DNA of 64,000 bases from an uncultured Gammaproteobacteria bacterium (GTDB lineage Bacteria; Pseudomonadota; Gammaproteobacteria; Arenicellales; CAJQKF01). Made by a program: the position numbers and the translations under genes. The stretch lies in NCBI GenBank assembly GCA_965652415.1, contig CBFGVH010000001.1, forward strand, positions 33,041 through 97,040. The letters run 5' to 3'. Positions 7,634 to 63,360 of this stretch are shown piece after piece. The notes beneath the pieces are model-generated. The model saw only the letters and a program-made list of their open reading frames with translations, did not search any database and had not been told where the DNA came from. Each line of letters opens with the position of its first letter. The first letter of the stretch is position 1.

Positions 7634-7671
7634 TTCTCTCTCCGAACGTGGTAACCGGCGGTGTGGCGGTG

Positions 7672-22591: not shown

Positions 22592-22665
22592 GCGTTTCGC
22601 CGCACGACACCACGATGGGGTGAACGGCGGCGAACCGGAGCTTTGCCGGGCGGCATGATCCGTCG

Positions 22666-23715
22666 ATGGTCCCAGCGCCGCCCGATCGAGGAAGAAACAT
22701 GCCAGCCAACGGACAGACAGCACTGCCGGCACAGGGAACTCGCCGCATCGTATTCCTTCTGATCCCGAACTACTCGATGATCGCCTTCTCGTGCGCCATC
22801 GAGCCGCTGAGAATGGCGAACTGGCTCACGGGCCGAACCTTGTACGAACCCGTGATCGCCACCGCCGGCGGCATGCCCGTGCTCGCCAGCAACGCACTGG
22901 CCGTGTCACCCTGCACCGACATCGACCAGGTACGCACGGCCGATATCGTGTTCGTCTGCGGCGGTATCGACCCGGACGTATCCCTGGTCCCCCGCATCAA
23001 GCCTGCACTCAAGGAGCTGTCGCGCCGCAAGGCGGCGCTCGGCGGAATCTGCACCGGCAGCTACCTGCTGGCGAAGGCGGGATTCCTCAACGGCTACCGC
23101 TGCACCATCCACTGGGAAAGCATCAACGCGATGTACGACGAGTTTCCGCAACTGGTCGTCTCCTCGGACCTGTTCGAACTCGACCGGGACCGCTTCACCT
23201 GCTCCGGCGGTTCCGCGCCGCTCGACATGATGCTCACGCTGATCGGCCGCGACCACGGCGGCGAGCTGGCGACCTCCATCGCGGAGATGTTCGTCTGCGA
23301 GCGGATTCGCGGGGTTCACGATCGCCAGCGCATCCCGCTCAAGCAGCGCTTCGGTTCCAGTCAGCCGAAGCTGACGGAGGCGGTGGAACTGATGGAAGCC
23401 AACATCGAGGAACCGATGAGCCTGGACGAGCTCTCCAGCCACGTCGGCATCTCGCGCCGCCAGCTCGAACGCCTGTTCCAGAAGCACCTGAACTGCGTGC
23501 CCACGCGCTACTACCTCGACCTTCGACTGAGGCGAGCGCGCGAATTGCTGCTGAGGTCGAACAAGTCGATCGTCGACATCGCCTTCTCCTGCGGCTTCGT
23601 CTCGGCGCCGCACTTCAGCAAGTGCTACCGCGACTTCTTCCACATCTCGCCGCGCGAAGAGCGCCGCAACGCCGGCTTCAAGTCGAGCGAAATGGAAGCG
23701 ATCACCCAGAAGTGA
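22666..23715 (+). CDS. GlxA-family transcriptional regulator (DJ-1/PfpI-like domain + AraC HTH; GbdR/CdhR-like)
   Basis: N-terminal IVFLLIPNYSMIAF.., IVFVCGG and GICTGSYLLA; C-terminal AraC HTH (LDELSSHVGISRRQLERLF..FSCGFVSAPHFSKCYR). The start may be the ATG at 22699. Confidence 0.85.
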   Translation: MVPAPPDRGRNMPANGQTALPAQGTRRIVFLLIPNYSMIAFSCAIEPLRMANWLTGRTLYEPVIATAGGMPVLASNALAVSPCTDIDQVRTADIVFVCGGIDPDVSLVPRIKPALKELSRRKAALGGICTGSYLLAKAGFLNGYRCTIHWESINAMYDEFPQLVVSSDLFELDRDRFTCSGGSAPLDMMLTLIGRDHGGELATSIAEMFVCERIRGVHDRQRIPLKQRFGSSQPKLTEAVELMEANIEEPMSLDELSSHVGISRRQLERLFQKHLNCVPTRYYLDLRLRRARELLLRSNKSIVDIAFSCGFVSAPHFSKCYRDFFHISPREERRNAGFKSSEMEAITQK

Positions 23716-34050: not shown

Positions 34051-37000
34051 ATGCCGACAGCCTACGCCGAACTGCACGCGCTCAGCAATTTCACCTTCCT
34101 GCGCGGCGCCTCGCACCCGGAGGAACTCGTCGAGCGCGCCCATGCCCTAGGCTACCGCGCCCTCGCCCTGACCGACGAATGCAGCATGGCGGGCATGGTC
34201 CGCGCCCATGTCAGGGCGAAGGCCGTAGGGCTGCACCTGGTCGCGGGCAGCGAGATGAGCCTCGACGACGGCACCCGGCTGGTGCTTCTGGCGCCGGACA
34301 TCAAGGCCTGGGCCAACCTCTGCGGCCTGGTCACCCGCGGCCGGCGGCGTTCGCCCAAGGGCGAGTACTCTCTCCATCGCGCCGACATCGAGGCGCTGCC
34401 GCGCGGCTGTCTCGCCCTGCTGCTGCCGCGCGCTCCCGAGCCGGGACGACTCGACGACGAGGCGGAGGCGCTCGACGATGCGCGCTGGTTCGCCGGCCTG
34501 TTCGGCGGTGACGGCTGGCTCGCCTTCGAGCTCCGGCGCGACGGGCTCGACGAGGCGCGCCTGTCGCAGTGCCGGCGCATTGCCGCCGCGGTCGGCCTGA
34601 AGCTGCTGGCGAGCGGCAACGTGCACATGCACGACCCCGCTCGCCGCCCCCTGCAGGACGTGCTCACCGCCATCCGCCTCGGCGTGCCGGTGGAAAAGGC
34701 CGGCCTCGCCCTGCATCCGAGCGGCGAGTGGTACCTCAAGCCGCCGCACCATCTCGCCCGGCACCTGCCGGCCGATCTCGTGCGCGAGACCGTCGCGGCC
34801 GCCGCGCGCTGTTCCTTCAGCCTCGACGAGTTGCGCTACGAGTACCCTCGCGAGTTCGTTGCGCGAGGACGCACGCCGTACCACCACCTGCGCCGGCTCA
34901 CCGTTGCCGGTATGCGTCGGCGCTTCGGCCGCCTCGTTCCCGGGGCGGTGCGCGAACTGGTGATCAAGGAGCTGGCGTTGATTCGTGAACTCGCCTACGA
35001 GGCCTATTTCCTCACCGTGCACGACATCGTCGAGTTCGCCCGCTCGCGCGGCATCCTGTGCCAGGGCCGCGGCTCGGCGGCCAACTCGGCGGTGTGCTAC
35101 TGCCTTGGCATCACCGAGGTCGACCCTTCGCGCATGGACCTGTTGTTCGAGCGCTTCATCTCCCGCGAGCGCAACGAGCCGCCCGACATCGATGTCGACT
35201 TCGAGCACGAGCGGCGCGAGGAAGTGATCCAGTACATCTACCGCAAGTACGGCCGCGATCACGCCGCCCTGACCGCCACCGTGATCTGCTACCGGCCGAA
35301 GAGCGCGGTGCGCGACGTCGGCAAGGCGCTGGGCCTTGGCACACACCAGCTCGACAACCTCGCCTCGAACCTCACGTGGTGGGACGGCAACCGGCTGCCT
35401 CCGGAGCGCATCCGCGAGGCTGGGCTGGATCCCGGCAATCCCGTGGTACGGCGCCTTCTGCACCTGGCCGGCGAGATCATCGGCTTTCCGCGCCACCTGT
35501 CCCAGCACACCGGCGGCTTCGTCATCTCCCACGCACCCCTGCATACCCTGGTGCCGGTGGAGAACGCGGCCATGGCCGAGCGCACGGTGATCCAGTGGGA
35601 CAAGGACGACATCGACGCCCTGGGCCTGCTCAAGGTCGACTGCCTGGGACTGGGTATGCTGTCCGCCATCCGCCGCTGCCTTGCCCTGGTCGGCGAGACC
35701 ACCGGGACTTCGCGGGCCCTTGCCGACATCCCGCCCGAGGACCCGGCCACCTACGACATGATCTGCCGCGCCGACACCATCGGCGTGTTCCAGGTCGAGT
35801 CGCGGGCGCAGATGGCGATGCTGCCGCGCCTTCGCCCGCGCGACTTCTACGATCTCGTCATCGAGGTCGCCATCGTCAGGCCGGGGCCGATCCAGGGCGA
35901 CATGGTCCACCCCTATCTCAAGCGCCGCCAGAAACTGGAGCCGGTGGTCTATCCCAGCGAGGCGGTGCGCCGGGTGCTCGAGCGCACCCTCGGCATCCCG
36001 ATCTTCCAGGAACAGGTGATCAAGCTGGCCACGGTGGCCGCCGGCTTCACCCCCGGCGAGGCGGACGCCCTGCGCCGCTCGATGGCGGCCTGGCGGCGGC
36101 GCGGCGGCCTCGAGCACTTCCACGACAAGCTGGTGCGCGGCATGCGAGAACGGGGCTACGACACCGACTTCGCCGAACGCATCTACCAGCAGATCCTCGG
36201 CTTCGGCGAGTACGGCTTCCCCGAGTCCCATGCCGCCGGCTTCGCCCTTTTGGTCTACGCGTCGGCCTGGCTGAAATGCCACCACCCGGCGGCCTTCACC
36301 TGCGCCCTGCTGAACAGCCAGCCGATGGGCTTCTACGCGCCGTCGCAGCTGGTGCAGGATGCGGTGCGGCACGGCGTCGAGGTGCGGCCGGTGGACGTCA
36401 ATGCCAGCACCGTGGACTGCACCCTGGAGCCGTCGTCGGCCGGCCCTGCGCTCCGACTCGGCCTGCGCATGGTCCGCAGCCTCTCGCGGGAAGGCGCCGA
36501 GCGCCTGGTCGCCGCGCGCGCACAGCAGGCCTTCGACAGCGCGCGCGACCTGGCCCGCCGCGCGGGCCTCGATCGCGGCGATCGAAACGCACTGGCCGCC
36601 GCCGGAGCCCTCGACCGCCTGAGCCGCCACCGCCGCCGGGCGGCCTGGGACCTTGCCGGCGCGCCCCCTGCCCTGCCGCTGGTGGCCGACGCCTGGCCGG
36701 GCGAGCCGGCGCCCATGCTGCGCCCGCCGACGGTCGGCGAGGCGGTGCGGGACGACTATGCGAGCACGGGGCTCACCCTCGGCCCCCATCCGCTTGCCCT
36801 GGTGCGCGAGGAACTCGATCGCCGGCGAATCCGCAGCGCCCGCCGCATCGCCCGCACGCCCCACGGCACCCGGGTGCGCGTCGCCGGCATCGTCACCTGC
36901 CGCCAGCGGCCTTCCAGTGCCAGCAACGTGGTGTTCGTGACCCTCGAGGACGAAACCGGCTACGTCAATCTCGTGGTGTGGAAACACGTCGCCGAGCGCG

Positions 37001-37149
37001 ACCGCCGCGCCCTGGTGTCGGCACGGCTGATGGCGGCCTTCGGCGAGGTGCAGCGCGAGGGCGAGGTGATCCACGTCATCGTGCGCCAGCTGCGCGACAT
37101 GAGCGGCCTGCTGGGCGCGCTCACGACCCGATCCAGGGATTTTCGGTAG
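34051..37149 (+). CDS. dnaE2: error-prone DNA polymerase (DnaE2 / ImuC)
   Basis: MPTAYAELHALSNFTFLRGASHPEELV..ALTDECSMAG forms the PHP N-terminus; polymerase III alpha core follows. The 1032-aa length is typical of DnaE2. Confidence 0.9.
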   Translation: MPTAYAELHALSNFTFLRGASHPEELVERAHALGYRALALTDECSMAGMVRAHVRAKAVGLHLVAGSEMSLDDGTRLVLLAPDIKAWANLCGLVTRGRRRSPKGEYSLHRADIEALPRGCLALLLPRAPEPGRLDDEAEALDDARWFAGLFGGDGWLAFELRRDGLDEARLSQCRRIAAAVGLKLLASGNVHMHDPARRPLQDVLTAIRLGVPVEKAGLALHPSGEWYLKPPHHLARHLPADLVRETVAAAARCSFSLDELRYEYPREFVARGRTPYHHLRRLTVAGMRRRFGRLVPGAVRELVIKELALIRELAYEAYFLTVHDIVEFARSRGILCQGRGSAANSAVCYCLGITEVDPSRMDLLFERFISRERNEPPDIDVDFEHERREEVIQYIYRKYGRDHAALTATVICYRPKSAVRDVGKALGLGTHQLDNLASNLTWWDGNRLPPERIREAGLDPGNPVVRRLLHLAGEIIGFPRHLSQHTGGFVISHAPLHTLVPVENAAMAERTVIQWDKDDIDALGLLKVDCLGLGMLSAIRRCLALVGETTGTSRALADIPPEDPATYDMICRADTIGVFQVESRAQMAMLPRLRPRDFYDLVIEVAIVRPGPIQGDMVHPYLKRRQKLEPVVYPSEAVRRVLERTLGIPIFQEQVIKLATVAAGFTPGEADALRRSMAAWRRRGGLEHFHDKLVRGMRERGYDTDFAERIYQQILGFGEYGFPESHAAGFALLVYASAWLKCHHPAAFTCALLNSQPMGFYAPSQLVQDAVRHGVEVRPVDVNASTVDCTLEPSSAGPALRLGLRMVRSLSREGAERLVAARAQQAFDSARDLARRAGLDRGDRNALAAAGALDRLSRHRRRAAWDLAGAPPALPLVADAWPGEPAPMLRPPTVGEAVRDDYASTGLTLGPHPLALVREELDRRRIRSARRIARTPHGTRVRVAGIVTCRQRPSSASNVVFVTLEDETGYVNLVVWKHVAERDRRALVSARLMAAFGEVQREGEVIHVIVRQLRDMSGLLGALTTRSRDFR

Positions 37150-37154: not shown

Positions 37155-38150
37155 TCAGGCGCCCGGCAGCAAAACAACCTTCGGTGCCGCGACCCGGCCT
37201 TCGAGCAGTTCGGCGAAGGCGCGCGGCCCGCCCGCGAGCGGCCGCCGCTCGATCCAGTCGAGGGCGCCGAGCGCGCCGCTGGCGAGCTTCGCGGCCGCAG
37301 CGGCCAGATCGGCGGTGGTGTAGGTGTAGGCGCCGATGACGGTGATCTCGGCCAGGGTGATGCGCCGCGCATCGAGTCCGCCGTCGTTGTCCATCAGGCC
37401 GATGTGCAGGAGCACACCGCCCGGAGCGATCGCCGACATGGCAAGCTCGCGGGTGCGGCCGCCGCCGACGCAATCCAGCACCAGATCGAAGGCGGCCTCG
37501 TCGAGTGTGTCTTCGACAGGATCGAACACCCGGCCGATGCCGGCAGCGGCGGCCGTGTCGCGCCGCAGTTCGTTGCGTTCGGCGATCTCGATCGCCTCGC
37601 AGCCGTAGTGGGACAGCAGCAGTGCGGCCAGAAGCCCCACCGAGCCCGCGCCAATGACCAGAGAGCGGCCCTCCGCCAGCGGCCGCGCCGCGGCGCGGCC
37701 CGCCAGTGCCAGCGCGTGCACGGCGGTGGCCGCCGGTTCGGTCAACGCCGCGTGGGCGGCGTCCATGGATTCGGGCACCGGCACCAGGCACTGGTCTGGA
37801 ACCGCCAGGCGCTCGGCGTAGCCGCCGGGGCGGGTCATTCCGATCATGGTGCGGTCGGCGCAGATGTTGAATCGACCGGTACGGCAGTAGCGACAGACGC
37901 CGCAGGTGATCAGCGGGTTGAGGATCACGCGCCGGCCGTCGAACGGCCCGCCTTCGGCCCGTCCGCAGACCTCGTGACCGAGAACCAGCGGCGGCACGCG
38001 CCTGGGGTCGTGGCCGAGGTAGGCGTGCATGTCGGAGCCGCAGATGCCGACCGCCTCGACGCGGACGATGGACTCTCCTGCGCCGGCGACCGGCTCGGGT
38101 TCATCGCGCAGGGACATTTGCCGCGGCGCGGTATAGACGAGTGCCTTCAT
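37155..38150 (-). CDS. Zn-dependent alcohol dehydrogenase (MDR family)
   Basis: GICGSDMH and GHE zinc motifs plus a Rossmann GxGxxG (VIGAGSVG). Start is at ATG 38150 (MKALVY..). Confidence 0.85.
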   Translation of the reverse strand: MKALVYTAPRQMSLRDEPEPVAGAGESIVRVEAVGICGSDMHAYLGHDPRRVPPLVLGHEVCGRAEGGPFDGRRVILNPLITCGVCRYCRTGRFNICADRTMIGMTRPGGYAERLAVPDQCLVPVPESMDAAHAALTEPAATAVHALALAGRAAARPLAEGRSLVIGAGSVGLLAALLLSHYGCEAIEIAERNELRRDTAAAAGIGRVFDPVEDTLDEAAFDLVLDCVGGGRTRELAMSAIAPGGVLLHIGLMDNDGGLDARRITLAEITVIGAYTYTTADLAAAAAKLASGALGALDWIERRPLAGGPRAFAELLEGRVAAPKVVLLPGA

Positions 38151-38154
38151 GATC

Positions 38155-38922
38155 TCACTTCGCGGTAAAGCCGCCGTCGACAAAAATGGTCTGCCCGGTG
38201 ATGTAGTCGGATGCCGGCGAGGCGAGGAACACGGCGATGCCGGCCAGGTCGGTCATCTCGCCGTTGCGGCCGACGGCCGTATGGTCCGCCGCCCACTGCC
38301 GACGCCCGGGATCGTCGAATACCGGCCGCGTCAGATCGGTCGGGAAGAACCCGGGAGCGATGGCGTTGCAGTTGATGCCGTGGCGCGACCAGGCCTCGGC
38401 CATGGCCCGCGTGAGCTGCTCGATCCCGCCCTTGGAAGCGCCGTAGGCAATGCTGTCGGGAAAGGCACGGCGCGACTGCAGCGAGGCGATGTTGATCACC
38501 CTGCCCCAGCCTTTCTCCTGCATGGCCGGCACCAGCAGCCGGGCAAGGAAGAACGGCACCGAGAGGTTGATGTCCAAAGTGCGCTGCCACGATTCCCGGG
38601 TGATCTCCCGCCACGGCTCGCGCAGGTTGACCCCGGCGCAGTTGACCAGGATGTCGGGGCTGCCGAGGCCGTCGGCGACCTCGCGGGTCAGCCTTTCGAG
38701 TTCGCCCGCTGCTTGAAGATCCGCCGCCACCGCCAATGCGCGACCGCCCGCATCGACGATCGCCCGGGCGGTTTCATCGAGTGCGTCCGCCCTTCTCGCG
38801 CTCACGGCCACCGCCGCCCCGCCCGATGCCAGGACGCCGGCAAGGGCGCACCCGATGCCGCCGCTCGCCCCGGTGACGAGGGCGACGCGGCCGGACAGGT
38901 CGAACAACGCGCCGAGACTCAC
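38155..38922 (-). CDS. SDR-family oxidoreductase
   Basis: TGASGGIG cofactor motif and YGASK catalytic YxxxK. The GTG start forms a GTGA overlap with the upstream gene. Confidence 0.88.
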   Translation of the reverse strand: MSLGALFDLSGRVALVTGASGGIGCALAGVLASGGAAVAVSARRADALDETARAIVDAGGRALAVAADLQAAGELERLTREVADGLGSPDILVNCAGVNLREPWREITRESWQRTLDINLSVPFFLARLLVPAMQEKGWGRVINIASLQSRRAFPDSIAYGASKGGIEQLTRAMAEAWSRHGINCNAIAPGFFPTDLTRPVFDDPGRRQWAADHTAVGRNGEMTDLAGIAVFLASPASDYITGQTIFVDGGFTAK

Positions 38923-40223
38923 GGCCGCAAGGTGAAACTCTCGTCCGGGAAATACTTGCCAAGCCGGTCATCGCCCGTCAGCGCGTGTCCCTCCATGCCC
39001 TCCAGGCGCGAGATTCGCGACGACGCCACTGCCACGCTGCGGTTCGCGTCCCGCGTCATGCGCTGCCACGTGACCGTCTTGATGAACTTGCCCACCGACA
39101 GACCGCCGGTGTAGCGGGCCGCGCCGCGGGTGGGCAGGATGTGGTTGGTGCCGGAGCACTTGTCGCCGTAGGCGACGGTCGTTTCCTCGCCGAGGAACAG
39201 CGAACCGTAGTTGGACAGGTTGACCAGCCACCAGTCGAGGTCGGCGGCGTGCACTTCGAGGTGCTCCGGCGCATAGCGATCGCTGACCTCGACCGCCTCC
39301 TCGCGCGAGTCCACCACGACGACCTCGCCGTAGTCGCGCCAGGCAACCTCGGCAGCGCCGCGATTGGGCTCGGGCAGGCGCGCGATGCACGCGGGAACCT
39401 GCGCCATGGCGGCCTCGGCCACGGCCCGCGACAGGGCAACCAGCCAGGCCGGCGAGTCGGGACCGTGCTCCGCTTGTCCGACGAGGTCCGACGCAACCAG
39501 GAACGGGTCGGCTTCATCGTCGGCGATGACCAGCACCTCGGTGGGACCTGCGAAAAGATCGATGCCGACGCGGCCGAACAGCACCCGCTTGGACTCGGCC
39601 ACGAAGCGGTTCCCCGGACCCACGATGATGTCGGCCGGGTGCCCCGTAAAGAGCCCGAACGCCAGCGCCGCTACCCCCTGCACGCCGCCGAGATTCAGGA
39701 TGGTATCGGCGCCGCACAGGTCCGCGGTGTAGATGATGGCCGGATGGCAGCCGCCGTGCTCGCGGTTGGGTGGCGAACACACCACGACGTTCTTCACCCC
39801 GGCCACTTTCGCGGTGGTCACGCTCATCACTGCCGAGGCGACGTGGGCGTAGCGGCCGCCGGGCACGTAACAGCCGGCCGTAACGACCGGGACCAGGCGT
39901 TGGCCCGCGAAAAGACCGGGCGACAGCTCGGTCTCGAACTCGGTCATGCTGGCGCGCTGCGCCTCGGCGAACTGGCGAACACGGTCGTACGAAAAGCGGA
40001 TATCGTCTTTCACCGCCCGCGGCAGCGCCGCTGCGGCGGACTCGACGGTCTCGGCGGACACGACGACCTCGCCCTGGAAACCGTCCAGCTCCCTCGCGTA
40101 GTCGAGCGCCTTCGCTTCACCGCCGTGCTCGATCTCTGCCAGCATGCGGTTGACGATGGCACGGGTATCGTCCTCGCCGGTGGTCGGGTTCTTTTCGGCG
40201 CGCTTCAGATAGGTCGTTGCCAT
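38919..40223 (-). CDS. histidinol-dehydrogenase-family dehydrogenase (paralogue; possibly sulfopropanediol 3-dehydrogenase-like)
   Basis: 434-aa HisD-fold sequence in a TRAP/dehydrogenase operon, with no his-operon context. Confidence 0.7.
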   Translation of the reverse strand: MATTYLKRAEKNPTTGEDDTRAIVNRMLAEIEHGGEAKALDYARELDGFQGEVVVSAETVESAAAALPRAVKDDIRFSYDRVRQFAEAQRASMTEFETELSPGLFAGQRLVPVVTAGCYVPGGRYAHVASAVMSVTTAKVAGVKNVVVCSPPNREHGGCHPAIIYTADLCGADTILNLGGVQGVAALAFGLFTGHPADIIVGPGNRFVAESKRVLFGRVGIDLFAGPTEVLVIADDEADPFLVASDLVGQAEHGPDSPAWLVALSRAVAEAAMAQVPACIARLPEPNRGAAEVAWRDYGEVVVVDSREEAVEVSDRYAPEHLEVHAADLDWWLVNLSNYGSLFLGEETTVAYGDKCSGTNHILPTRGAARYTGGLSVGKFIKTVTWQRMTRDANRSVAVASSRISRLEGMEGHALTGDDRLGKYFPDESFTLRP

Positions 40224-40257
40224 TGAGTGTCTCGCTCGTTGCGTCCGGGTTTGGCCG

Positions 40258-41598
40258 TCAGTTGCCGTAGATCACGCCCGGCAGCCACAGGGCGATCTGC
40301 GGAAAGGTCATGATCAGCGCCAGGCCGAACAGCTGGACCAGCATGAACTGCATCATGCCGAGGTAGATGTCCTTGAGGTCCCACTCGGGCACGACGCCCT
40401 TGAGAAAGTAGGCGGACAGCGCCACCGGCGGCGACAGCCACGCAGTCTGAAGGTTGACTGCCACCAGGATGCCGAACCAGGTCAGGTTGAAGCCCAGGTG
40501 GTCGATCAGCGGCAGCAGGATCGGAATGATGATCAGCACGATCGGCACCCATTCCAGCGGCCAGCCGAGCAGGAAGATCAGCCCCATGACCATGACCAGG
40601 ATCAGCATCGGAGGCATGTCGAGCTGCAGCAGAAACTCGGTCAGCATGCCCGGCGTGCCGAGCCTGGAGAACACCGCGCCGAAGAAGTTCGAGGCCGCCA
40701 CCAGGAACAGGATCAGCGCCGTGATCTCCAGCGTCTTGATCATCGCATCGCGAAACCCCGACCAGGTGAGGCGCCGATAGGCCAGCGTCAGCAGCAGCGC
40801 GCCGAACGCGCCCATGCCGGCGCCCTCGGTGGGCGTGGCGAAGCCGAACAGGATGCTGCCGAGCGCGAACCCGACCAGGGCCGCCGGCGGCACCAGCCCG
40901 AGCAGAAACTCCCTGAACACGTGCCCCATGGACTTCGCACGCTGGTCGTCCGGCAGAAGCGGCGCCAGGTTCTTGTTGAGCTGGCAGCGCACGAGCGCGT
41001 AACCCGTGTAGAGGAACGCGAGCATGAAACCCGGGATGATCGCGGCCGCGAACAGGTCCGTCACGGGCACCTCGAGGATCGGACCCATCACCACGAGCAT
41101 GATGCTCGGCGGGATCAGGATGCCAAGCGTACCGCCGGCGGTGATGGTGCCCGCGGCGATGCGCACGTCGTAGCCCGAGCGGTTCATGGTCTTGGCGGCC
41201 ATGATGCCGAGGATCGTCACGGAGGCTCCGACGATGCCTGTCGCGGCGGCGAATATCGTCGATACGAACAGCACCGCGATGTACAAGGCGCCGCGCACCC
41301 GCGACAGCATGAGCTGCACCGCCTGGAACAGCCGCTCCATCAGTCCCGCCTGCTCCATGAGGATGCCCATGAAGACGAACAACGGCACCGCCGCCAGCGT
41401 CTGCTCCAGCATGACGCTCGAGAACTGGTAGGTCATCAGGTAGAAGACGAGGTCCCCGAACCCCCACAGGCCGAATACCATGCCGAGGAATATCAGCGTG
41501 AACGAGATCGGGAAGCCGACGAAGATGGCGAACAGCATCACGCCGACCATGATCAGGCCGATCTGTTCTCCGGGAAGATTGATGAGCGTTTCCAGCAT
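40258..41598 (-). CDS. dctM: TRAP transporter large permease
   Basis: 446-aa polytopic protein starting MLETLINLPGEQIGLIMVG.. at ATG 41598, with an ATGA overlap with dctQ. The 617-aa ORF in the track has a junk N-terminus. Confidence 0.88.
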   Translation of the reverse strand: MLETLINLPGEQIGLIMVGVMLFAIFVGFPISFTLIFLGMVFGLWGFGDLVFYLMTYQFSSVMLEQTLAAVPLFVFMGILMEQAGLMERLFQAVQLMLSRVRGALYIAVLFVSTIFAAATGIVGASVTILGIMAAKTMNRSGYDVRIAAGTITAGGTLGILIPPSIMLVVMGPILEVPVTDLFAAAIIPGFMLAFLYTGYALVRCQLNKNLAPLLPDDQRAKSMGHVFREFLLGLVPPAALVGFALGSILFGFATPTEGAGMGAFGALLLTLAYRRLTWSGFRDAMIKTLEITALILFLVAASNFFGAVFSRLGTPGMLTEFLLQLDMPPMLILVMVMGLIFLLGWPLEWVPIVLIIIPILLPLIDHLGFNLTWFGILVAVNLQTAWLSPPVALSAYFLKGVVPEWDLKDIYLGMMQFMLVQLFGLALIMTFPQIALWLPGVIYGN

Positions 41599-42209
41599 CA
41601 GAACGGCCACCGGTTGTGACGCGACGCGTAGGCCGCCTTGAGCACTTCGGACACGCCCTGGATCAGCAGGAACAGGATGCCGAGCGGAAGTGCCGACTTG
41701 ATCGGACCCATGTAGGGCATCCACGCCGTATCCATGCCGCGCTCGCCTCGCGACCACGCCTCGAAGGCGTAGTCGATGGACATCCACATGAACACGATCA
41801 GTCCGGGGAAATAGAACAGCAGGAACAGCACCAGGTCGACGCGTCCCTGGGCTCTCGGGCTCCAGTTGCGGTAAATGAAATCGGCCCGAATATGGACGCC
41901 CCTGGCCAGCGCGTAGGCGGCGCCCAGGGTGAACATGGCGCCGTACAGGAACCGGCTGATGTCGAAGGCCCACATGGTCGGCGCCACGAAGAACTTGCGC
42001 GCCACGACCTCGTACACCATCGCAAAGCACAGGGGCAGTACCAGCCACGCCACCACGAAACCCGTCCAGCGACTGAAGGTATCGATGGCGAGTATGGTGT
42101 TCGCCATCCACGGCGCCATGTCGTCGGGGATGGTCTCGCGGCTGACCGTGTGCCCTTCGGCGATGAGTTCGTCGGCAACCTGCAAGTGCTCGGGAACTTT
42201 CTCAGTCAT
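41598..42209 (-). CDS. dctQ: TRAP transporter small permease
   Basis: 203 aa with 4 TM helices; start at ATG 42209 (MTEKVPEHL..); lies between dctP and dctM. Confidence 0.8.
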   Translation of the reverse strand: MTEKVPEHLQVADELIAEGHTVSRETIPDDMAPWMANTILAIDTFSRWTGFVVAWLVLPLCFAMVYEVVARKFFVAPTMWAFDISRFLYGAMFTLGAAYALARGVHIRADFIYRNWSPRAQGRVDLVLFLLFYFPGLIVFMWMSIDYAFEAWSRGERGMDTAWMPYMGPIKSALPLGILFLLIQGVSEVLKAAYASRHNRWPF

Positions 42210-42309
42210 CGATTGAACCCCGGCAAAAAAACAAGCGGACCGTCTCCGGTCCGCTTGTGCAATGAGCCATGAGCAAAAAACGTCGCTCCGCCTTTTCTCG
42301 CAATCGGCC

Positions 42310-43410
42310 TTACTTCTGCAGGCTCTTGGCGTAAGCCTGGCCGAGATTGGCGTTGGAAGTCTGGGCGCCCGCCCAGAACGGAACGGCGATCTCGGCGAAC
42401 GCCTTCTGCGACTCCCACACCTCCTTGAAGAAGGCGTTCTCCTCGGCATTCTTCTCGAGCAGGTTGCGCGCGGCGTTCATGTACTCGCTGAAGTAGTCCG
42501 TCGGGGTGTCGTGAAGCTGCACGCCGTGGTTCTCGACGAGGTCCTTGAGCGCCTTGCCGTTCTCGTAGATCCGGTAGCCCATCGAACGCATCAGGGACGC
42601 GTCGGCCGCCACGTTCATCGCGTACTGCTGCTCGGGGGTCAGGCTGTTCCAGATGTCGCCGTTGATGTAGAGGTCGGCATTCACGACGACCTGGTGCAGG
42701 CCCTGCAGGTAGTAGTGCTTGAGCACCTTCTGGAAGCCGAACACGCTGTCGGGCTTCGGGCAGCACCACTCCGCGGCGTCGATCGTGCCCTTCTCCAGGG
42801 CGGGGAGGATGTCGCCGCCGGCCATGGCCACCGATGCCACGCCGATGTCGTTATAGGACTGTCCCGGGATCCCCGGCGGGGTGCGGAACCGATACTTGCG
42901 GAAGTCCTCCATGCTGTTGATGGGCTCGCGGAACCAACCGAGCGCCTCGGGCCCTACCGGTTGCAGCATCAGTCCCTTGACGTTCACGCCCATCTCGTCC
43001 CACAAGCGGTCGTACAACTCGCGGCCGCCTCCGTACATGAACCAGGACACCCAGGCGATGTTGTCCATGCCGACGCCGCCGCCGGCAACGGGGGAACCGA
43101 ACAGCATGGCTGCCGGGTGCTGGCCGGACCAGTAATGGGTCCAGGCGAACCCGCCCTCGACGAGGCCCTTGTCGACGGCATTGAGCACGTCACGGGCGGC
43201 AACCACGGCGCCGTCCGGAAGAACCTCTATGGTGACTTCGCCGTCGGTCAGGTTGCTGACGGTTTCACCGAAGTCCTTGAGCATGGTGATTTCGTCGGCC
43301 TTGAGCGGCAACACCGACTGAACACGTATGTTGACCGCCGCCTGCGCCTGCCCCGCGACCATGGCGGCGGCGAGGAGCGCACTGGATACGGGTAGCCATT
43401 TGCGTTTCAT
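42310..43410 (-). CDS. dctP: TRAP transporter substrate-binding protein
   Basis: Signal peptide MKRKWLPVSSALLAAAMVAGQAQA plus a DctP-type SBP body; 366 aa. Confidence 0.85.
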   Translation of the reverse strand: MKRKWLPVSSALLAAAMVAGQAQAAVNIRVQSVLPLKADEITMLKDFGETVSNLTDGEVTIEVLPDGAVVAARDVLNAVDKGLVEGGFAWTHYWSGQHPAAMLFGSPVAGGGVGMDNIAWVSWFMYGGGRELYDRLWDEMGVNVKGLMLQPVGPEALGWFREPINSMEDFRKYRFRTPPGIPGQSYNDIGVASVAMAGGDILPALEKGTIDAAEWCCPKPDSVFGFQKVLKHYYLQGLHQVVVNADLYINGDIWNSLTPEQQYAMNVAADASLMRSMGYRIYENGKALKDLVENHGVQLHDTPTDYFSEYMNAARNLLEKNAEENAFFKEVWESQKAFAEIAVPFWAGAQTSNANLGQAYAKSLQK

Positions 43411-43612
43411 ATGCGATTGTCCTCCTAATGGGATTTCGATGGGGTCTTCGTTGGTCCGTTCCCTGGAACAGTGATCTCCTGTTCGGTCACACCGGCCCGT
43501 CTTCTTAACGAGCCTGCCGGGCGACGTTGCCGTTCCGTTGCAGGTGCCTGGTCCGGATCTGCAGCGTCATGCGCCCGTTCATCAAACCGATAGCTGTTAT
43601 CGACAATGTGTT

Positions 43613-43626
43613 TGTAAGCGCTTTCA
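43613..43626. promoter_or_regulatory. LacI-family operator-like palindrome (site 1)
   Basis: TGTAAGCGCTTTCA fits TGnnAnCGnTnnCA. It lies in the dctP/regulator divergent intergenic region. Confidence 0.55.
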
Positions 43627-43793
43627 GTTTTGAGCTAACATTGAATCAGTTCAACACAAACCTGTCAACGATTTCGACCAGAAAATCTCGCGATCGACCT
43701 TGCCTCCCGGCTGAACACATAAAAATCAAGGCATTGAAGCGTCATGCGATGGTGAACGAGGAACAGCGGAAGGACCGGCCGGACAGTCCGGCC

Positions 43794-43807
43794 AGTAAGC
43801 GCTTACA
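43794..43807. promoter_or_regulatory. LacI-family operator-like palindrome (site 2)
   Basis: AGTAAGCGCTTACA has a perfect 12-bp core (GTAAGCGCTTAC) and sits 17 nt upstream of the regulator ATG at 43824. Confidence 0.55.
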
Positions 43808-43823
43808 AATATCGCCTCATTCC

Positions 43824-44843
43824 ATGCCGCGACTCGAGGACGTCGCTGCGCGGGCGGGTGTGTCGACCGCCACCGTCTCGCGAGTTCTCAACCGGCGCGA
43901 TTCAGTCACGGAGGCGCTTCGCGAACGCGTGCTCGCCGCCGTCGAGGAACTGGGATACCTGCCCCACGGCGCGGCGCGTGCGCTCGCGAGCCGCCGCTGG
44001 AAGACCATCGGCGCCATCGTGCCCACCATCGACAACGCAATCTTCGCCACCAGCCTGCAAACGCTGCAGGAACGATTGTCCGGGTTCGGTTACACGCTGC
44101 TGCTGGCCAGTTCCGACTACAGCCTCGAACGCGAGTACAAGGAATGTCACACGCTGCTGGAAAAAGGCATCGACGGACTGATCCTGGTCGGCGAGACCCA
44201 CCTGCCGGACATCTACACCGTGCTCAACAAGAAGCGGGTGCCTTACGTCAACATCTGGATACACAACGAACAGAGCCCGCACCCGTGCGTCGGCTTCGAC
44301 AATTACGGCGCAGCGGTCCAGCTGACCGAGTACCTGATCGACATCGGCCACCGACGCATAGCCATGCTCGCCGGCATCAACGAAGGCAATGACCGCGCGG
44401 TGGGGCGCTCCGCCGGTGTGCGCGACGCGCTCGCGCGACGAGGCCTGCAGTTCTACAACGGCTTCTACGAGGAACGCAGCTACTCCATCGAGGAAGGACG
44501 CAAGGTCGCCAGCGCGTGGCTGACGCACCCCTCGCCCCCCAGCGCCATCATGTGCGGCAACGACATCCTGGCACTCGGCGTGCTGTTCGAATGTGTCAAT
44601 CGCGATATCGACGTCCCGGGAACGATTTCCATCACCGGCTTCGACGGGCTCGAGATTACGGGCCACGTCAGGCCGGCCCTGACCACGGTGCACATCCCCA
44701 GCGCGGAGATGGGAACGCTTGCGGCGGACTACCTCGTCGCGCGCCTGGAGAACCGCCCGGTAGCGGAAAAGACGCGCCTGAGCACGAGTCTCGTGATTCG
44801 CGCCACCACCGCCCCGCCCCGCACCGACACGGCTCGACACTGA
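43824..44843 (+). CDS. LacI-family transcriptional regulator
   Basis: HTH MPRLEDVAARAGVSTATVSRVLN plus a periplasmic-binding-protein-like effector domain. An alternative ATG exists at 43749. Confidence 0.85.
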   Translation: MPRLEDVAARAGVSTATVSRVLNRRDSVTEALRERVLAAVEELGYLPHGAARALASRRWKTIGAIVPTIDNAIFATSLQTLQERLSGFGYTLLLASSDYSLEREYKECHTLLEKGIDGLILVGETHLPDIYTVLNKKRVPYVNIWIHNEQSPHPCVGFDNYGAAVQLTEYLIDIGHRRIAMLAGINEGNDRAVGRSAGVRDALARRGLQFYNGFYEERSYSIEEGRKVASAWLTHPSPPSAIMCGNDILALGVLFECVNRDIDVPGTISITGFDGLEITGHVRPALTTVHIPSAEMGTLAADYLVARLENRPVAEKTRLSTSLVIRATTAPPRTDTARH

Positions 44844-46457
44844 ATGCGCGCCATGAGCGAATACGATTACATCATCATCGGTGCCGGCTCGGCCGGCTGC
44901 GTACTGGCCCACCGCCTGAGCGCGGACCCGGCAAACCGCGTGCTGCTGCTCGAAGCCGGACCCCCGGATCGTTACCCGTGGATCCATGTGCCCATCGGCT
45001 ACGCCAAGACGATGTTCAACTCGCGCTACAACTGGTGCTTCGAGACAGAGCCGGATCCGGGCATGAACAATCGCCGGATCTACTGGCCGCGCGGCAAGGT
45101 GCTGGGCGGATCGAGTGCCATCAACGGCCTGATCTACATTCGCGGCCAGGCGGCCGACTACGACGACTGGGCCCGGCAGGGAAACCCCGGCTGGAGCTAT
45201 GCCGACATCCTGCCGTACTTCATACGCTCCGAGCGCAACCAGCGCGGGGCCGGCGCATATCACGGCGCCGGCGGCATGCAGGGCGTATCGGACGTCGGCG
45301 AACCGCACGAACTCGCCGAGGCCTTCATCGACGCCTGCGCCCAGGCGGGAATCCCCCGCAACGACGACTTCAACGGCGAACGCCAGGAAGGTGCCGGCTA
45401 CTATCAGCTCACCACCTGGCGCGGGCGGCGCTGCAGCAGCGCCGTGGGCTACCTGCGCCCGGCGCGCGGGCGCTCCAACCTCGATGTGCAGACCGGGGCT
45501 CTCGTTCACCGGTTGATCGTCGAGGACCGGACCGTCCAGGGAGTGGAGTATGCTCGCGGCGGCACGCGCGCCAGGGCGCGGGCACGCGCCGAGGTGATTC
45601 TCAGCGCCGGCGCCATCGGCTCGCCCCAGGTCCTGATGCTCTCCGGGATCGGTGATCCGGAAGAACTCGCGCGGCACGGCATCGAGGTCGTTCATGCGAA
45701 CCCGGCCGTAGGCCGCAACCTGCAGGACCACCTGCAGATCCGCCTGATCCACGAGTGCAACCGGCCGATCACCACCAACGACGACTTGAAGAGCCTGTAC
45801 CGCAAGGCGAAGATGGGGCTTCGCTACGTCCTCGCCCGCTCAGGGCCGCTGGCGATCGGCATCAACCAGGCCGGCGCCTTTACCGCCACGGGCGTGGACA
45901 CCGGGCGGCCGGACGAACCGGACATCCAGTTCCACTTCGCCGCCCTCTCGGCCGACATGCCGGGGGCGCCCCTGCACGAGTTTTCGGGATTCACCTCTTC
46001 GGTGTGTCAGCTAAGGCCCACCAGCCGCGGCGTCGTACGACTCAAGAGCGCCGACCCGAACGAGGCACCGGCCATGCATCCGAACTACCTCGCCACCGAG
46101 TTCGACCAGCGCAGCGTGGTCGAGGCGCTGCGCATCGCCCGCCGCGTCGCCGATGCACCGGCCATGCAACGCTACATTCGGCGCGAGCACGCCCCGGGAG
46201 CCGACATCGAGAGCGACGACGAGCTGCTCGAATTCGCGCGCGATACCGGCGTCACCATCTTCCATCCGTCGTGCACCTGCCGCATGGGCAACGACGACAA
46301 CAGCGTGGTGGACCACCGGCTCAGGGTGCGCGGAATGGATCGACTACGCGTGGTGGACTGCTCGATCATGCCGAGCCTGGTCTCCGGCAATACCCACGCG
46401 CCGGCGGTGATGATCGCCGAGAAGGCTTCGGACATGATTCTCGAGGATCGCCGCTGA
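44844..46457 (+). CDS. GMC-family FAD oxidoreductase (choline/alcohol dehydrogenase-like)
   Basis: YDYIIIGAGSAGCVLAHRLS FAD fold and a C-terminal ..HPSCTCRMG.. GMC signature. The start may be the ATG at 44853. Confidence 0.88.
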   Translation: MRAMSEYDYIIIGAGSAGCVLAHRLSADPANRVLLLEAGPPDRYPWIHVPIGYAKTMFNSRYNWCFETEPDPGMNNRRIYWPRGKVLGGSSAINGLIYIRGQAADYDDWARQGNPGWSYADILPYFIRSERNQRGAGAYHGAGGMQGVSDVGEPHELAEAFIDACAQAGIPRNDDFNGERQEGAGYYQLTTWRGRRCSSAVGYLRPARGRSNLDVQTGALVHRLIVEDRTVQGVEYARGGTRARARARAEVILSAGAIGSPQVLMLSGIGDPEELARHGIEVVHANPAVGRNLQDHLQIRLIHECNRPITTNDDLKSLYRKAKMGLRYVLARSGPLAIGINQAGAFTATGVDTGRPDEPDIQFHFAALSADMPGAPLHEFSGFTSSVCQLRPTSRGVVRLKSADPNEAPAMHPNYLATEFDQRSVVEALRIARRVADAPAMQRYIRREHAPGADIESDDELLEFARDTGVTIFHPSCTCRMGNDDNSVVDHRLRVRGMDRLRVVDCSIMPSLVSGNTHAPAVMIAEKASDMILEDRR

Positions 46458-50411: not shown

Positions 50412-51017
50412 TCAGTCCCAACGCCAGTGGGGATAGCCCTTGCCCGGCTCCCACAGGATCTCGCGCTCTCCCAGGGTGGCGCTGCTCCAGCGGCCGAACA
50501 CGAACAGGGCGTCCGACAAGCGGTTCAGGTAGGCGATGACGTGAGGACTCACGGCCTCCGTCTGCGCGAGCCGCAGCACTTCGCGCTCGGCGCGCCGGCA
50601 GACCGTGCGCGCGTGGTGCAGCGCGGCGTTCATCGCGCTGCCGCCCGGGAGGATGAAACTGCGGAGTGTGGACAGTTCCTCGTTCATGGCGTCGATGACC
50701 TGCTCGAGCCACTCGGCATCGCGCGCCTCCACGAGCACCTGCCCCTCGTATTCGTCGCCCGGTGCGGTCGCGAGTTCGGCGCCGAGATCGAACAACTTGT
50801 GCGAAACGGCCTCGAGAATCGCTTCCAGGCTGTCGCGTCGGGGGGAAGGCTCCTTCGACTCGTTGAGACTGCGCACGATCCCGATCAGGCTGTTCAACTC
50901 GTCGACGGTGCCGTACGCCTCGATCCTCTGGTGGACCTTGGGCAGCCGGCGACCGCCGACCAGGCCGGTCTCGCCACCGTCTCCGGTGCGGGTGTAAACC
51001 TTGGTAATCTTGACCAT
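50412..51017 (-). CDS. ATP:cob(I)alamin adenosyltransferase, PduO type
   Basis: MVKITKVYTRTGDGGETGL.. N-terminus, characteristic of the PduO/MMAB family; 201 aa. Confidence 0.88.
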   Translation of the reverse strand: MVKITKVYTRTGDGGETGLVGGRRLPKVHQRIEAYGTVDELNSLIGIVRSLNESKEPSPRRDSLEAILEAVSHKLFDLGAELATAPGDEYEGQVLVEARDAEWLEQVIDAMNEELSTLRSFILPGGSAMNAALHHARTVCRRAEREVLRLAQTEAVSPHVIAYLNRLSDALFVFGRWSSATLGEREILWEPGKGYPHWRWD

Positions 51018-51165
51018 CGTCGTGTCCGGGAAGTATGAATGGACGGCGCGTGCCGGCGGCCGATTATATCGGCAAGCCCGGTGCGCCGGCGTAGCCCGCG
51101 GCCGCGGAGGCGTTACGTTTTCGTAGGCGCCGCGTTTGTTTCCACCTCACAGGATACTGAAAACG

Positions 51166-52530
51166 ATGCCAAGCGGCCCTGATCCCACTGCTGCGCACGC
51201 CAGCGAAGGCGACGTGAACACCTCCTCGAGGCGCGCCGAATGGGTCGAGCGAAACGTCGGGGAGCGAACGCGAGAACTGCTGGCGCGCGACGAACGGGTG
51301 TTCATCCACCAGTCGCTGTCGACACCGTGTCTCAACGCCCTCGAAGGGGCCGGGGGCATCGAACTCGTCGATCTCGACGGGCGCAGAATCATGGATTTTC
51401 ACGGCAACAGCGTGCACCAGGTCGGCTACGGCCATCCGCGAGTGATCGAGGCGGTGAAGCGCCAGCTCGACGAGCTGCCTTTCTGTCCACGCCGCTACAC
51501 CAACGAGACCGCCGTTCGCCTCGCGGAGAAGCTCTGCGCGCTCGCCCCCCCGGGCCTGGACAAGTGCCTGCTGGCCCCGGGCGGCACATCTGCGATCGGC
51601 ATGGCGATCAAGCTGGTGCGCTACGCCACCGGCCGGCACAAGACCCTGTCGATGTGGGACGCCTTCCACGGCGCCTCCCTCGACGCCATCTCGATCGGCG
51701 GCGAGGCCCTGTTCCGGCGCGGCGTCGGCCCGCTGCTGCCCGGCACCGAGCACCTGCCGCCGCCGACGTGGGGCCACCGGCATTTCGGCTCCGTGGAGAA
51801 GGCCGAGGCGTTCTGGGCCGAGTACGTCGAGTTCGTGCTCGCCACCGAGGGCGACGTCGCCGCGGTGATCGCCGAACCAATGCGCTGGACCACCGTGGAG
51901 CCGCCATCGAGGACTTTCTGGGAAAAGGTACGCGCCTCCTGCGATCGTCACGGCGCCCTGCTGGTGTTCGACGAGATCCCGTCCGCGCTCGGCCGCAGCG
52001 GCCGCATGTTCGTCTGCGAGACGATCGGCGTCACTCCCGACATCCTGGTCATCGGCAAGGGTCTCGGCGGTGCGGTGTTCCCGATGGCGGCCCTGGTCGC
52101 CCGGGGCGATCTCGATTGCGTCGCCGACGTCGCCCTGGGGCACTACACCCACGAGAAAAGCCCGGTGGGTTGCGCCGCCGCGCTCGCCACGCTCGAGGTC
52201 ATCGAGGAAGAGCGGCTCGCGGAACGCGCCGCGAAGCTTGGCGCGCTCGCACTTGAGCGCATGCATGCCATGAAGGCCAGGCACGCGATTATCCGCGACG
52301 TGAGGGGCCTGGGGCTGCACCTCGGCATCGAGCTCGGCACCGGCGACGGCCCGGCCGTCGACGCCGCCGACGAGGTGCTGTACCGATGCCTCGCCCGAGG
52401 GCTGAGCTTCAAGCTCGGCGCCGGGTGCGTGATCACCCTGTGCCCTCCCCTGACCATCGACGAGGAGGAACTGATGCGCGCCTTCGATATCGTCGAAGAG
52501 GCAGTTGCCGCGGCCGGGTCCGATCAGTAG
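51166..52530 (+). CDS. class-III (omega) aminotransferase
   Basis: Fold-type I AT-III motifs (..VFDEIPSALGRSGRMF.., PLP-Lys region LVIGKGLGG). ATG 51166 with an AGGA SD is preferred over TTG 51136. Confidence 0.85.
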   Translation: MPSGPDPTAAHASEGDVNTSSRRAEWVERNVGERTRELLARDERVFIHQSLSTPCLNALEGAGGIELVDLDGRRIMDFHGNSVHQVGYGHPRVIEAVKRQLDELPFCPRRYTNETAVRLAEKLCALAPPGLDKCLLAPGGTSAIGMAIKLVRYATGRHKTLSMWDAFHGASLDAISIGGEALFRRGVGPLLPGTEHLPPPTWGHRHFGSVEKAEAFWAEYVEFVLATEGDVAAVIAEPMRWTTVEPPSRTFWEKVRASCDRHGALLVFDEIPSALGRSGRMFVCETIGVTPDILVIGKGLGGAVFPMAALVARGDLDCVADVALGHYTHEKSPVGCAAALATLEVIEEERLAERAAKLGALALERMHAMKARHAIIRDVRGLGLHLGIELGTGDGPAVDAADEVLYRCLARGLSFKLGAGCVITLCPPLTIDEEELMRAFDIVEEAVAAAGSDQ

Positions 52531-63350: not shown

Positions 63351-63360
63351 GGAGTTTCGC

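Follow-up and report, generated by a model that had tools for sequence, protein, structure and literature searches.

A probable HpsR-type locus for the uptake and first oxidation of small hydroxy-sulfonates, with a TakP-like TRAP transporter, in an uncultured gammaproteobacterium

2,3-Dihydroxypropane-1-sulfonate (DHPS) and isethionate are major carbon and sulfur currencies passed from phytoplankton to bacteria, and genes for their import and oxidation have been described in several arrangements. In Ruegeria pomeroyi DSS-3 (SPO0590-0596) and on the Rhodovulum sulfidophilum plasmid AP014802, the hpsRKLMNOP locus carries a divergent LacI-family regulator gene (hpsR, SPO0590 in R. pomeroyi) and, in this order, the genes for the substrate-binding protein (SBP), the small and the large membrane subunits of a transporter of the tripartite ATP-independent periplasmic (TRAP) type and the dehydrogenases HpsN, HpsO and HpsP; in R. 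pomeroyi the operon adjoins hpsQ and slcD. Cupriavidus pinatubonensis (JMP134; HN-2 plasmid p2), the source of the characterized HpsN, has the order hpsR-hpsN-hpsO-hpsU-hpsP-suyAB, with the major facilitator superfamily (MFS) transporter HpsU for uptake and the sulfolactate lyase SuyAB within the cluster. The iseJKLMR locus of R. pomeroyi (SPO2355-2359) and other aerobes joins a flavin-dependent dehydrogenase gene to a three-gene TRAP transporter. In Candidatus Pelagibacter ubique, where the hps genes are scattered, the TRAP SBP SAR11_0864 ('cluster 3') has isethionate and either enantiomer of DHPS as ligands and is dependent on Ca2+, and cluster 3 is the most divergent from R. pomeroyi HpsK (RpHpsK) of several mutually divergent SBP clusters linked to hpsNOP (Barber et al., 2026). 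Both the presence of HpsNOP in Gammaproteobacteria and hpsNOP-linked SBPs unrelated to RpHpsK have already been published. Here we compare with these systems a locus at positions 37,155 to 46,457 of a 64,000-nt stretch (hereafter the window; contig CBFGVH010000001.1, positions 33,041 to 97,040) from an uncultured gammaproteobacterium of the Arenicellales.

The locus comprises a six-gene operon, which encodes the three subunits of a TRAP transporter, a paralog of histidinol dehydrogenase (HisD), a short-chain dehydrogenase/reductase (SDR) and a Zn-dependent alcohol dehydrogenase (ADH), and a divergent operon, absent from the original prediction, which adjoins it and encodes a LacI-family regulator and a GMC-family oxidoreductase. 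We consider it probable that this is an HpsR-type (LacI) regulated locus for the uptake and first oxidation of small hydroxy-sulfonates, and the most likely reading is that it serves a marine gammaproteobacterium in importing algal DHPS and oxidizing it to sulfolactate. Apart from its type of transporter, the locus is an ordinary representative of the known DHPS pathway, and it leaves the known biochemistry unchanged. As far as we know, three points are not set out in the published work consulted, namely that an HpsR-type operator is conserved among Beta-, Alpha- and Gammaproteobacteria, the placing of a GMC gene in an HpsR-type regulon, and the extreme conservation of a TakP-like SBP clade together with its dual hps/ise-type context.

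The three dehydrogenases, the regulator and its operators

NCBIfam holds no model for HpsN, HpsO or HpsP, and the decisive comparisons were made against the library of solved structures (Protein Data Bank, PDB). Against C. pinatubonensis HpsN (CpHpsN, 8v35) and R. pomeroyi HpsN (8wwe), the HisD-like protein scored 578 and 526 bits, respectively, versus at most 243 bits against true histidinol dehydrogenase structures, which sets it inside and not outside the HpsN clade; it is 59.7% identical to CpHpsN and 64.1% identical to Rhodovulum HpsN. Its residues 123-127 read GRYAH, in agreement with the HpsN-specific motif G-R-Y-A/S-H, in which His126 binds the sulfonate and whose HisD counterpart is G-S-A-P-L (PMC11382572). 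When aligned to 8v35, Glu318, His319, Asp352, Lys353 and His359 are identical and the NAD+ determinants Leu45, Asp46 and Phe205 are kept. The sole change among the published residues of the three dehydrogenases is Ser226 to Thr in this protein, a conservative substitution that retains the hydroxyl. On its best reading, the protein is predicted to be an NAD+- and Zn2+-dependent (R)-DHPS 3-dehydrogenase (sulfopropanediol 3-dehydrogenase, EC 1.1.1.308) forming (R)-sulfolactate.

The SDR found its top PDB matches in R. pomeroyi HpsO (RpHpsO, 8wwf; 290 bits), a Lentibacter homolog (6le3; 275 bits) and C. pinatubonensis HpsO (CpHpsO, 9pvq; 265 bits), the next match reaching 188 bits. Its identity is 55% when aligned with CpHpsO and 58-59% with both RpHpsO and the Rhodovulum protein. 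Ser145, Gln147, Tyr158 and Lys162 align identically with RpHpsO; in HpsO the catalytic triad is Ser145-Tyr158-Lys162, and Gln147, which is absent from gluconate dehydrogenases, reads the C2 hydroxyl. The Zn-dependent ADH scored 304 bits against Dinoroseobacter HpsP (DsHpsP, 8wwd), with the next PDB match at 112 bits; it is 49% identical to DsHpsP and C. pinatubonensis HpsP and 52% identical to Rhodovulum HpsP, and conserves the DsHpsP residues His59, Glu60 and Glu139. Among themselves, the characterized Hps enzymes share 58% (HpsN), 52% (HpsO) and 46% (HpsP) identity, and the identities of the window enzymes to characterized or annotated Hps proteins (60-64%, 55-59% and 49-52%, respectively) equal or exceed these values.

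The divergent regulator provides evidence of a different kind. Two reference loci were fetched, that of C. pinatubonensis (a LacI gene divergent from hpsN-hpsO-MFS-hpsP-suyAB) and that of the Rhodovulum sulfidophilum plasmid (a LacI gene divergent from hpsK-L-M-N-O-P), and the window regulator is 40% and 45% identical to their LacI proteins, respectively. An imperfect palindrome in the divergent region between the SBP and regulator genes, TGTAAGCGCTTTCA, was spotted by eye and validated by pattern search, the inverted-repeat tool having found no repeat in this region. The pattern search indicated two putative 14-bp sites in the window (operators 1 and 2, Table 1), which account for four strand-matches at two or fewer mismatches, where chance alone would give 0.11. 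C. pinatubonensis has the identical 14-mer TGTAAGCGCTTTCA, together with a second copy, between its LacI gene and hpsN. The Rhodovulum plasmid carries two close variants between the LacI gene and hpsK; its divergent region, like that of the window, has two operators of the TG(T/A)AAGCGCTT(T/A)CA type. Furthermore, the other LacI-bearing loci related to the window SBP each have one copy in the spacer between the LacI and SBP genes (3/3). Altogether, each of the six LacI-bearing loci examined has the operator in the promoter region proximal to the regulator gene, with one match elsewhere in the 1.58 Mb of fetched DNA. This evidence is independent of the enzymes and assigns the locus to the regulon type of the DHPS-inducible reference loci; the GMC gene, which lies behind the shared operator with the regulator gene, is therefore placed inside an HpsR-type regulon. 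Operator 2 probably mediates autoregulation of the regulator. The 14-bp operator may also serve as a practical marker for HpsR regulons.

Since the best matches, the diagnostic residues and the shared regulator and operator agree, the three dehydrogenases are assigned by sequence as orthologs of HpsN, HpsO and HpsP, and their homology to these enzymes, which the original prediction had proposed, is borne out. The proposed likeness to hpsKLMNOP as a whole holds for the gene order and for hpsNOP; the TRAP genes are related to hpsKLM only at the family level. DHPS oxidation is the best reading of the locus because of the homology of these three genes and the gene order matching hpsKLMNOP.

The original prediction had also given equal weight to some other vicinal diol or a polyol acid as the substrate. 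On such a reading the SDR would act like a gluconate 5-dehydrogenase, the ADH like a sorbitol or threonine dehydrogenase and the third enzyme as a HisD paralog on a non-sulfonated substrate such as a sugar acid. General family models do liken the SDR to gluconate 5-dehydrogenase and the ADH to threonine dehydrogenase, with every score under its cutoff, the closest solved relatives of the SBP bind keto acids and lactate, and the characterized HpsO, HpsP and HpsN are weakly active on gluconate, sorbitol and histidinol. Set against this, GRYAH and Lys353 are present along with Gln147 of HpsO, all three enzymes match Hps enzymes far better than sugar-acid enzymes, and suyAB lies directly upstream of the same TRAP genes in sister loci. 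GRYAH, Lys353 and the HpsR-type operator point to a sulfonate, so that equal standing for a non-sulfonated substrate was too generous; we regard such a substrate as extremely improbable.

The pathway appears modular, in that the regulator, the operator and the three dehydrogenases travel together and the importer is swapped, with an MFS transporter in Cupriavidus, an HpsK-type TRAP transporter in Roseobacters and a TakP-type TRAP transporter in the window. The locus places the oxidative HpsNOP route in an uncultured GC-rich gammaproteobacterial lineage, with many sponge-associated metagenome-assembled genomes (MAGs) among the relatives. In a relative that is at least 90% identical, the NCBI protein names are 'histidinol dehydrogenase' and 'alcohol dehydrogenase', so that name-based surveys will miss such proteins.

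The TakP-like transporter and its clade

In contrast to the dehydrogenases, the transporter could be traced to hpsKLM only as a distant member of the same family. The best PDB matches of the SBP were TakP of Rhodobacter sphaeroides (2hzk, 127 bits), 4yzz/4yic and the lactate-binding TTHA0766 (107 bits); TakP and TTHA0766, its closest solved structures, are of similar length and only about 30-35% identical to it. Against the R. pomeroyi HpsK structure (24gc) the SBP scored 27.5 bits (E = 1.4e-5), and it is 21.6% identical to Rhodovulum HpsK over 268 aa. DctQ of the window is 33% identical to Rhodovulum HpsL over 70 aa only, and DctM is 28% identical to Rhodovulum HpsM, with SiaQM-type and IseQM permeases as its PDB relatives (119-148 bits). 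By score and identity, the SBP thus falls outside the HpsK-type SBPs (cluster 2 of the sequence similarity network); the sulfonate site of RpHpsK consists of Arg184, Arg207, Asn128, Ser125, Tyr75, Asp272 and Gln274, and residue mapping is unreliable at the distance of the window SBP. Judged from these comparisons, the TRAP transporter is not orthologous to HpsKLM and belongs to a different, TakP-like TRAP clade, and the original view of the TRAP genes as hpsKLM homologs does not hold beyond the family.

Comparison with TakP indicated which parts of the binding site are kept. The anion ligands Arg177 and Tyr100 of TakP correspond to Arg176 and Tyr93. In the TakP-like class (COG4663), the cation site is formed by Gln156, Glu214, the carbonyl of Trp215 and Glu240; the window SBP retains Glu214 and Trp215 and has Gln156/Glu240 swapped to Glu155/Gln240, which gives the same ligand set and places it among the TakP-like, cation-dependent SBPs. 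The aliphatic pocket of TakP has given way to other residues (His for Tyr99, Trp for Val97, Val for Pro243 and Ala for Val245), and the genes around the window SBP are sulfonate genes, not keto-acid genes. The anion, cation and pocket positions are invariant or nearly so in 240 aligned sequences of the clade in any genomic context. From this we infer that the Arg/Tyr pair and a bound cation allow the clade to recognize the 2-hydroxyethanesulfonate moiety common to isethionate and DHPS. The window SBP resembles SAR11_0864 in being linked to hpsNOP and divergent from RpHpsK while keeping a TakP-type cation site, and its clade may correspond to cluster 3 of Barber et al. (2026); the SAR11 hps genes are scattered, whereas those of the window stand in one operon.

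The clade of the SBP is sharply bounded and highly conserved. At least 590 species genomes have a relative of the SBP, an exhaustive search collapses to one full-length representative at 50% identity, and the next full-length relatives are at most 44% identical. The 80 best related loci were compared by tblastn and clustering of open reading frames (ORFs). Across them the SBP is 75-83% identical, and the adjacent DctQ is 37-70% identical; the hosts are Gamma- and Alphaproteobacteria and MAGs labeled Gemmatimonadetes, Entotheonella and Polyangiaceae. This conservation across classes and phylum labels suggests strong constraint, horizontal spread or both. Many of the hosts are sponge-symbiont MAGs (Poriferihabitaceae, Spongiihabitans, Arenicellales). 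No member of the clade was found in the plasmid collection, where the best match was 36% identical, and a homolog search seeded with the Marinovum algicola SBP returned no R. pomeroyi or SAR11 entry among the 120 matches listed.

Among the 80 loci, the SBP gene has as a neighbor hpsN in 26, hpsP in 32, a GMC homolog (49-67% identical) in 35, an IclR regulator gene in 33, a LacI homolog in 3 and a SuyB-type gene in 6. In several loci the SuyB-type gene lies directly upstream of the SBP gene, and in one of them (L019) it is preceded by a SAF-domain SuyA-like ORF. When only the 45 loci with full 10-kb flanks were counted, hpsN was present in 18 and the GMC gene in 21, and at least one of hpsN, hpsO, hpsP and the GMC gene in 32. 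The clade therefore occurs in both hps-type and ise-type surroundings: members in the Roseobacter clade, such as Marinovum algicola, show exactly the arrangement IclR-GMC-SBP-Q-M, which in gene order mirrors that of iseJKLMR. In the cultured Roseobacter Marinovum algicola FF3 (L088, 7256-16600), genes for an IclR regulator, a GMC protein, the SBP, a fused DctQM (772 aa) and an HpsN homolog (60% identical) stand together, with no hpsO or hpsP adjoining.

Further genes were seen beside the clade. A TerC or DUF475 membrane protein is encoded next to the SBP gene in 24 of the 80 loci (L036, L040, L042, L051, L056, L059, L070, L072, L077, L079, L081, L085, L087 and others); its gene often separates the permease gene from hpsN or shortly precedes that of the SBP. 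Export of ions or of sulfite are possibilities for these proteins. GmrSD-type restriction endonuclease genes lie in or next to the TRAP-hps unit in L044 (14389-16239, between dctM and hpsN) and L043 (7216-8928).

The GMC gene, the proposed route and desulfonation

The gene that follows the regulator gene encodes a flavoprotein for which no counterpart stands in the reference hps loci, the C. pinatubonensis cluster having SuyAB and no GMC gene and the R. pomeroyi operon adjoining hpsQ and slcD. The window shares with iseJKLMR a flavin-dependent dehydrogenase gene and a three-gene TRAP transporter, and differs from it in having a LacI (HpsR-type) instead of an IclR regulator and in joining hpsNOP to the TRAP operon. 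By this analogy, the GMC protein is most likely an IseJ-like isethionate (primary alcohol) dehydrogenase that would convert isethionate to sulfoacetaldehyde. The literature describes IseJ as 'membrane-bound flavin-dependent' without naming a family, and literature searches on SPO2358/SPO2359 and on GMC enzymes gave no family statement for IseJ either.

The locus might alternatively serve DHPS only, the GMC protein being an unrelated choline-type or other alcohol dehydrogenase encoded beside the regulator and the TRAP transporter having no role with isethionate. The GMC protein passes the choline dehydrogenase subfamily model NF002550 (644 bits against a cutoff of 605), its closest solved relatives are choline dehydrogenase and chloramphenicol oxidoreductase (top PDB matches about 427 bits), and the window has a LacI regulator gene and no IclR (IseR-type) gene within 10 kb, all of which would suit such a locus. 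Nevertheless, we think this unlikely, given that the GMC gene follows the regulator gene closely behind the shared operator, that the protein fails the BetA equivalog model TIGR01810 (549 bits against 732), that betB and betI were not found nearby, and that GMC homologs stand beside the SBP clade far more often (35/80) than expected for an unrelated gene. A doubtful further possibility is that the GMC flavoprotein is a respiratory-chain-linked enzyme of C3-sulfonates, either a flavin-dependent enzyme oxidizing DHPS to sulfolactaldehyde or a sulfolactate oxidase replacing SlcD; if this were true, the locus would represent a variant of the DHPS pathway, with two oxidative branches under a single regulator that are both fed by one cation-dependent TRAP transporter of the TakP type.

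Returning to an HpsR-type locus for small hydroxy-sulfonates, the following route is proposed. The periplasmic TakP-like SBP would capture DHPS, using the conserved Arg/Tyr pair and a bound cation, and probably isethionate too via the common 2-hydroxyethanesulfonate moiety, and would pass the ligand to the DctQ/DctM elevator-type permease, driven by an ion gradient. In the cytoplasm, HpsN is expected to oxidize (R)-DHPS to (R)-sulfolactate by removal of four electrons with Zn2+ and NAD+. HpsO and HpsP would handle the two DHPS enantiomers, either by interconversion via a 2-oxo intermediate or by separate oxidation to sulfolactaldehyde; the literature is split here between the original Cupriavidus model of racemization via the 2-oxo compound and the 2024 Roseobacter model, in which R- and S-DHPS are oxidized to sulfolactaldehyde. 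The LacI regulator may bind the two TGTAAGCGCTTTCA-type operators and control both the TRAP-hpsNOP operon and its own operon, which also encodes the GMC flavoprotein, most likely an IseJ-like enzyme turning isethionate into sulfoacetaldehyde. C-S cleavage (by SuyAB, Xsc or CuyA) and sulfite handling would be encoded elsewhere in the genome.

Several observations weigh against this reading. At the level of the enzyme, Bilophila sp. 4_1_30 has an HpsN homolog that shares 55% identity and its binding residues with CpHpsN, yet favors L-cysteinolate as a substrate over (R)-DHPS, and CpHpsN itself binds L-cysteate; by this precedent the HisD-like enzyme could be an L-cysteinolate dehydrogenase, in a locus that degrades cysteinolate or another amino-sulfonate. 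We hold this to be very unlikely, as the cysteinolate clusters have cuyC, cuyA and cuyB beside hpsN and none of these is found here, as the translation of hpsN is coupled to that of hpsO and hpsP, both of which act specifically on DHPS in three characterized organisms, and as hpsN lies behind an operator common to the DHPS-inducible Cupriavidus locus. On the side of the importer, the SBP gene lacks any hps or GMC neighbor in 13 of the 45 loci with full flanks (the annotated loci among them have housekeeping surroundings, or an IclR or TerC gene only), and the ligand of the SBP is predicted from context alone. As for the GMC gene, it is mostly paired with an IclR and not a LacI regulator in other loci, and its link to IseJ depends on IseJ being a GMC enzyme, as Weinitschke and colleagues reportedly described in 2010. 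Finally, neither the window nor the 10 kb preceding it yielded a desulfonating enzyme, a sulfolactaldehyde dehydrogenase or a clear exporter of sulfite; complete DHPS catabolism would depend on genes elsewhere in the genome.

Concerning desulfonation, annotation by Pfam, NCBIfam and public gene calls revealed no SuyAB, Xsc/Pta, ComDE, SlcD, CuyA or aldehyde dehydrogenase in the 64-kb window, in accord with the absence of SuyAB, SlcD, Xsc and CuyA noted originally, and the 10 kb upstream of the window hold only housekeeping genes. The search covered about 74 kb of the source genome. Published surveys report that sulfolyases are often unlinked to hpsNOP, and because of this their absence from the window is uninformative. 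The same facts would fit a pathway that ends at sulfolactate, in which NADH is gained from DHPS and the sulfolactate is excreted or passed to partners without desulfonation by the cell itself: suyAB, xsc, comDE, slcD and cuyA are all missing from the window and its 10-kb upstream flank, and co-location is often lacking in other organisms. However, a survey of organisms with hpsNOP assigned the SuyAB pathway to 93, the CuyA pathway to 51 and the Xsc pathway to 37 out of 272, most of the surveyed organisms having a sulfolyase somewhere in the genome; moreover, suyAB adjoins the same TRAP-hpsNOP unit in some sister genomes, and only about 74 kb of this genome are visible. An end at sulfolactate thus seems rather improbable.

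Two candidates for missing functions within the window were rejected. A pyridoxal phosphate (PLP) enzyme at 17301-18275, the only PLP fold-type II protein in the window, was considered as CuyA and scores as a threonine or 3-hydroxyaspartate dehydratase type. A cluster at 5932-11823, in which a TauE/SafE-family gene adjoins those for a tripartite transporter of the tricarboxylate type (TctC-TctB-TctA), an aldo-keto reductase and a hydrolase of the alpha/beta type, was considered as a sulfolactate importer with a sulfite exporter; no supporting evidence and no link to the hps locus was found, and it lies at least 26 kb away, the TauE/SafE gene (5932-6693) being distant from the hps locus as originally stated.

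Operon layout and neighboring genes

ORF listing and inspection of start codons placed all six minus-strand ORFs inside 37155-43410, and Pfam confirmed the family of each, so that the predicted operon of dctP, dctQ, dctM, a HisD paralog, an SDR and a Zn-dependent ADH stands with its coordinates (Table 1). Identical gene calls are found on several contigs in public metagenome assemblies, and because the same TRAP-HisD-like-SDR-ADH order was found again in the genomes of more than 20 other species, the arrangement is not due to chance. The DctM protein exceeds the TIGR00786 cutoff of 268.45.

Table 1. Genes and putative regulatory elements of the locus, in window positions
Feature	Position	Strand	Size and notes	Family match
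DctP-family TRAP SBP	42310..43410	-	366 aa, signal peptide	PF03480, 117 bits
DctQ-family TRAP small membrane subunit	41598..42209	-	203 aa	PF04290, 74 bits
DctM-family TRAP large membrane subunit	40258..41598	-	446 aa	TIGR00786, 275.5 bits; PF06808, 248 bits
HisD-family protein, HpsN ortholog by sequence	38919..40223	-	434 aa	PF00815, 430 bits
SDR, HpsO ortholog by sequence	38155..38922	-	255 aa, GTG start	
Zn-dependent medium-chain ADH, HpsP ortholog by sequence	37155..38150	-	331 aa from ATG 38150	
LacI-family HpsR-like regulator	43749..44843	+	364 aa as called; 339 aa from ATG 43824	PF00356, Peripla_BP
GMC-family FAD oxidoreductase	44853..46457	+	534 aa, starts 9 nt past the regulator gene	PF00732, PF05199
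Putative operator 1, TGTAAGCGCTTTCA	43613..43626		14-bp near-palindromic LacI-type site in the divergent SBP/regulator promoter region	
Putative operator 2, AGTAAGCGCTTACA	43794..43807		17 bp upstream of ATG 43824, or within the ORF if the start is 43749	
Terminator-like hairpin	42231..42258	-	12-bp G+C-rich stem (8 G-C pairs) followed by T7; lies in the 100 nt between the SBP gene and dctQ	

The junctions differ in part from those predicted, which were tiny gaps with ATGA and GTGA overlaps. The GTGA overlap is present at the hpsN stop and hpsO start; no ATGA was found, the dctQ stop and dctM start overlapping as TGATG instead, and the remaining gaps are 4, 34 and 100 nt. For the Zn-dependent ADH, ATG 38150 is preferred over the TTG at 38183 that had been proposed, because the sequence from there aligns with DsHpsP from Met1. 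The longest gap, the 100-nt spacer between the SBP gene and dctQ, is strongly structured (-43.4 kcal/mol, z = -3.4), a property shared by nearly all of the 73 related loci that were checked, and its hairpin is probably a partial terminator or a messenger RNA stabilizer that would yield an excess of SBP transcript.

Downstream of the six-gene operon, a DNA polymerase III alpha paralog of 1032 aa (34051-37149, plus strand) is convergent with hpsP, their stop codons lying 5 nt apart with no terminator detected between them; from its length and domain set alone, it is probably of the error-prone DnaE2 type. Proteins encoded at 51136-52530 and 62430-63551 were used to walk past the far end of the window, and no public record matched them. 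The former (plus strand) is a class-III aminotransferase-fold protein that scores 651 bits against the model of PbfA, the (R)-1-hydroxy-2-aminoethylphosphonate ammonia-lyase (curated cutoff 525), which suggests phosphonate catabolism, and a PduO-type cobalamin adenosyltransferase gene (50412-51017) lies just upstream of its gene. At 19396-20928 an MttB-family methyltransferase is encoded (PF06253, 576 bits; below the cutoff of the trimethylamine-specific TIGR02369), whose gene adjoins those of an EamA transporter and an AraC/DJ-1 regulator, and the whole region (19396-23715) is probably a non-pyrrolysine quaternary-amine demethylase module. Next to it, at 23738-26461 on the minus strand, lies an ORF of 907 aa with coding-like codon bias and zero Pfam matches.

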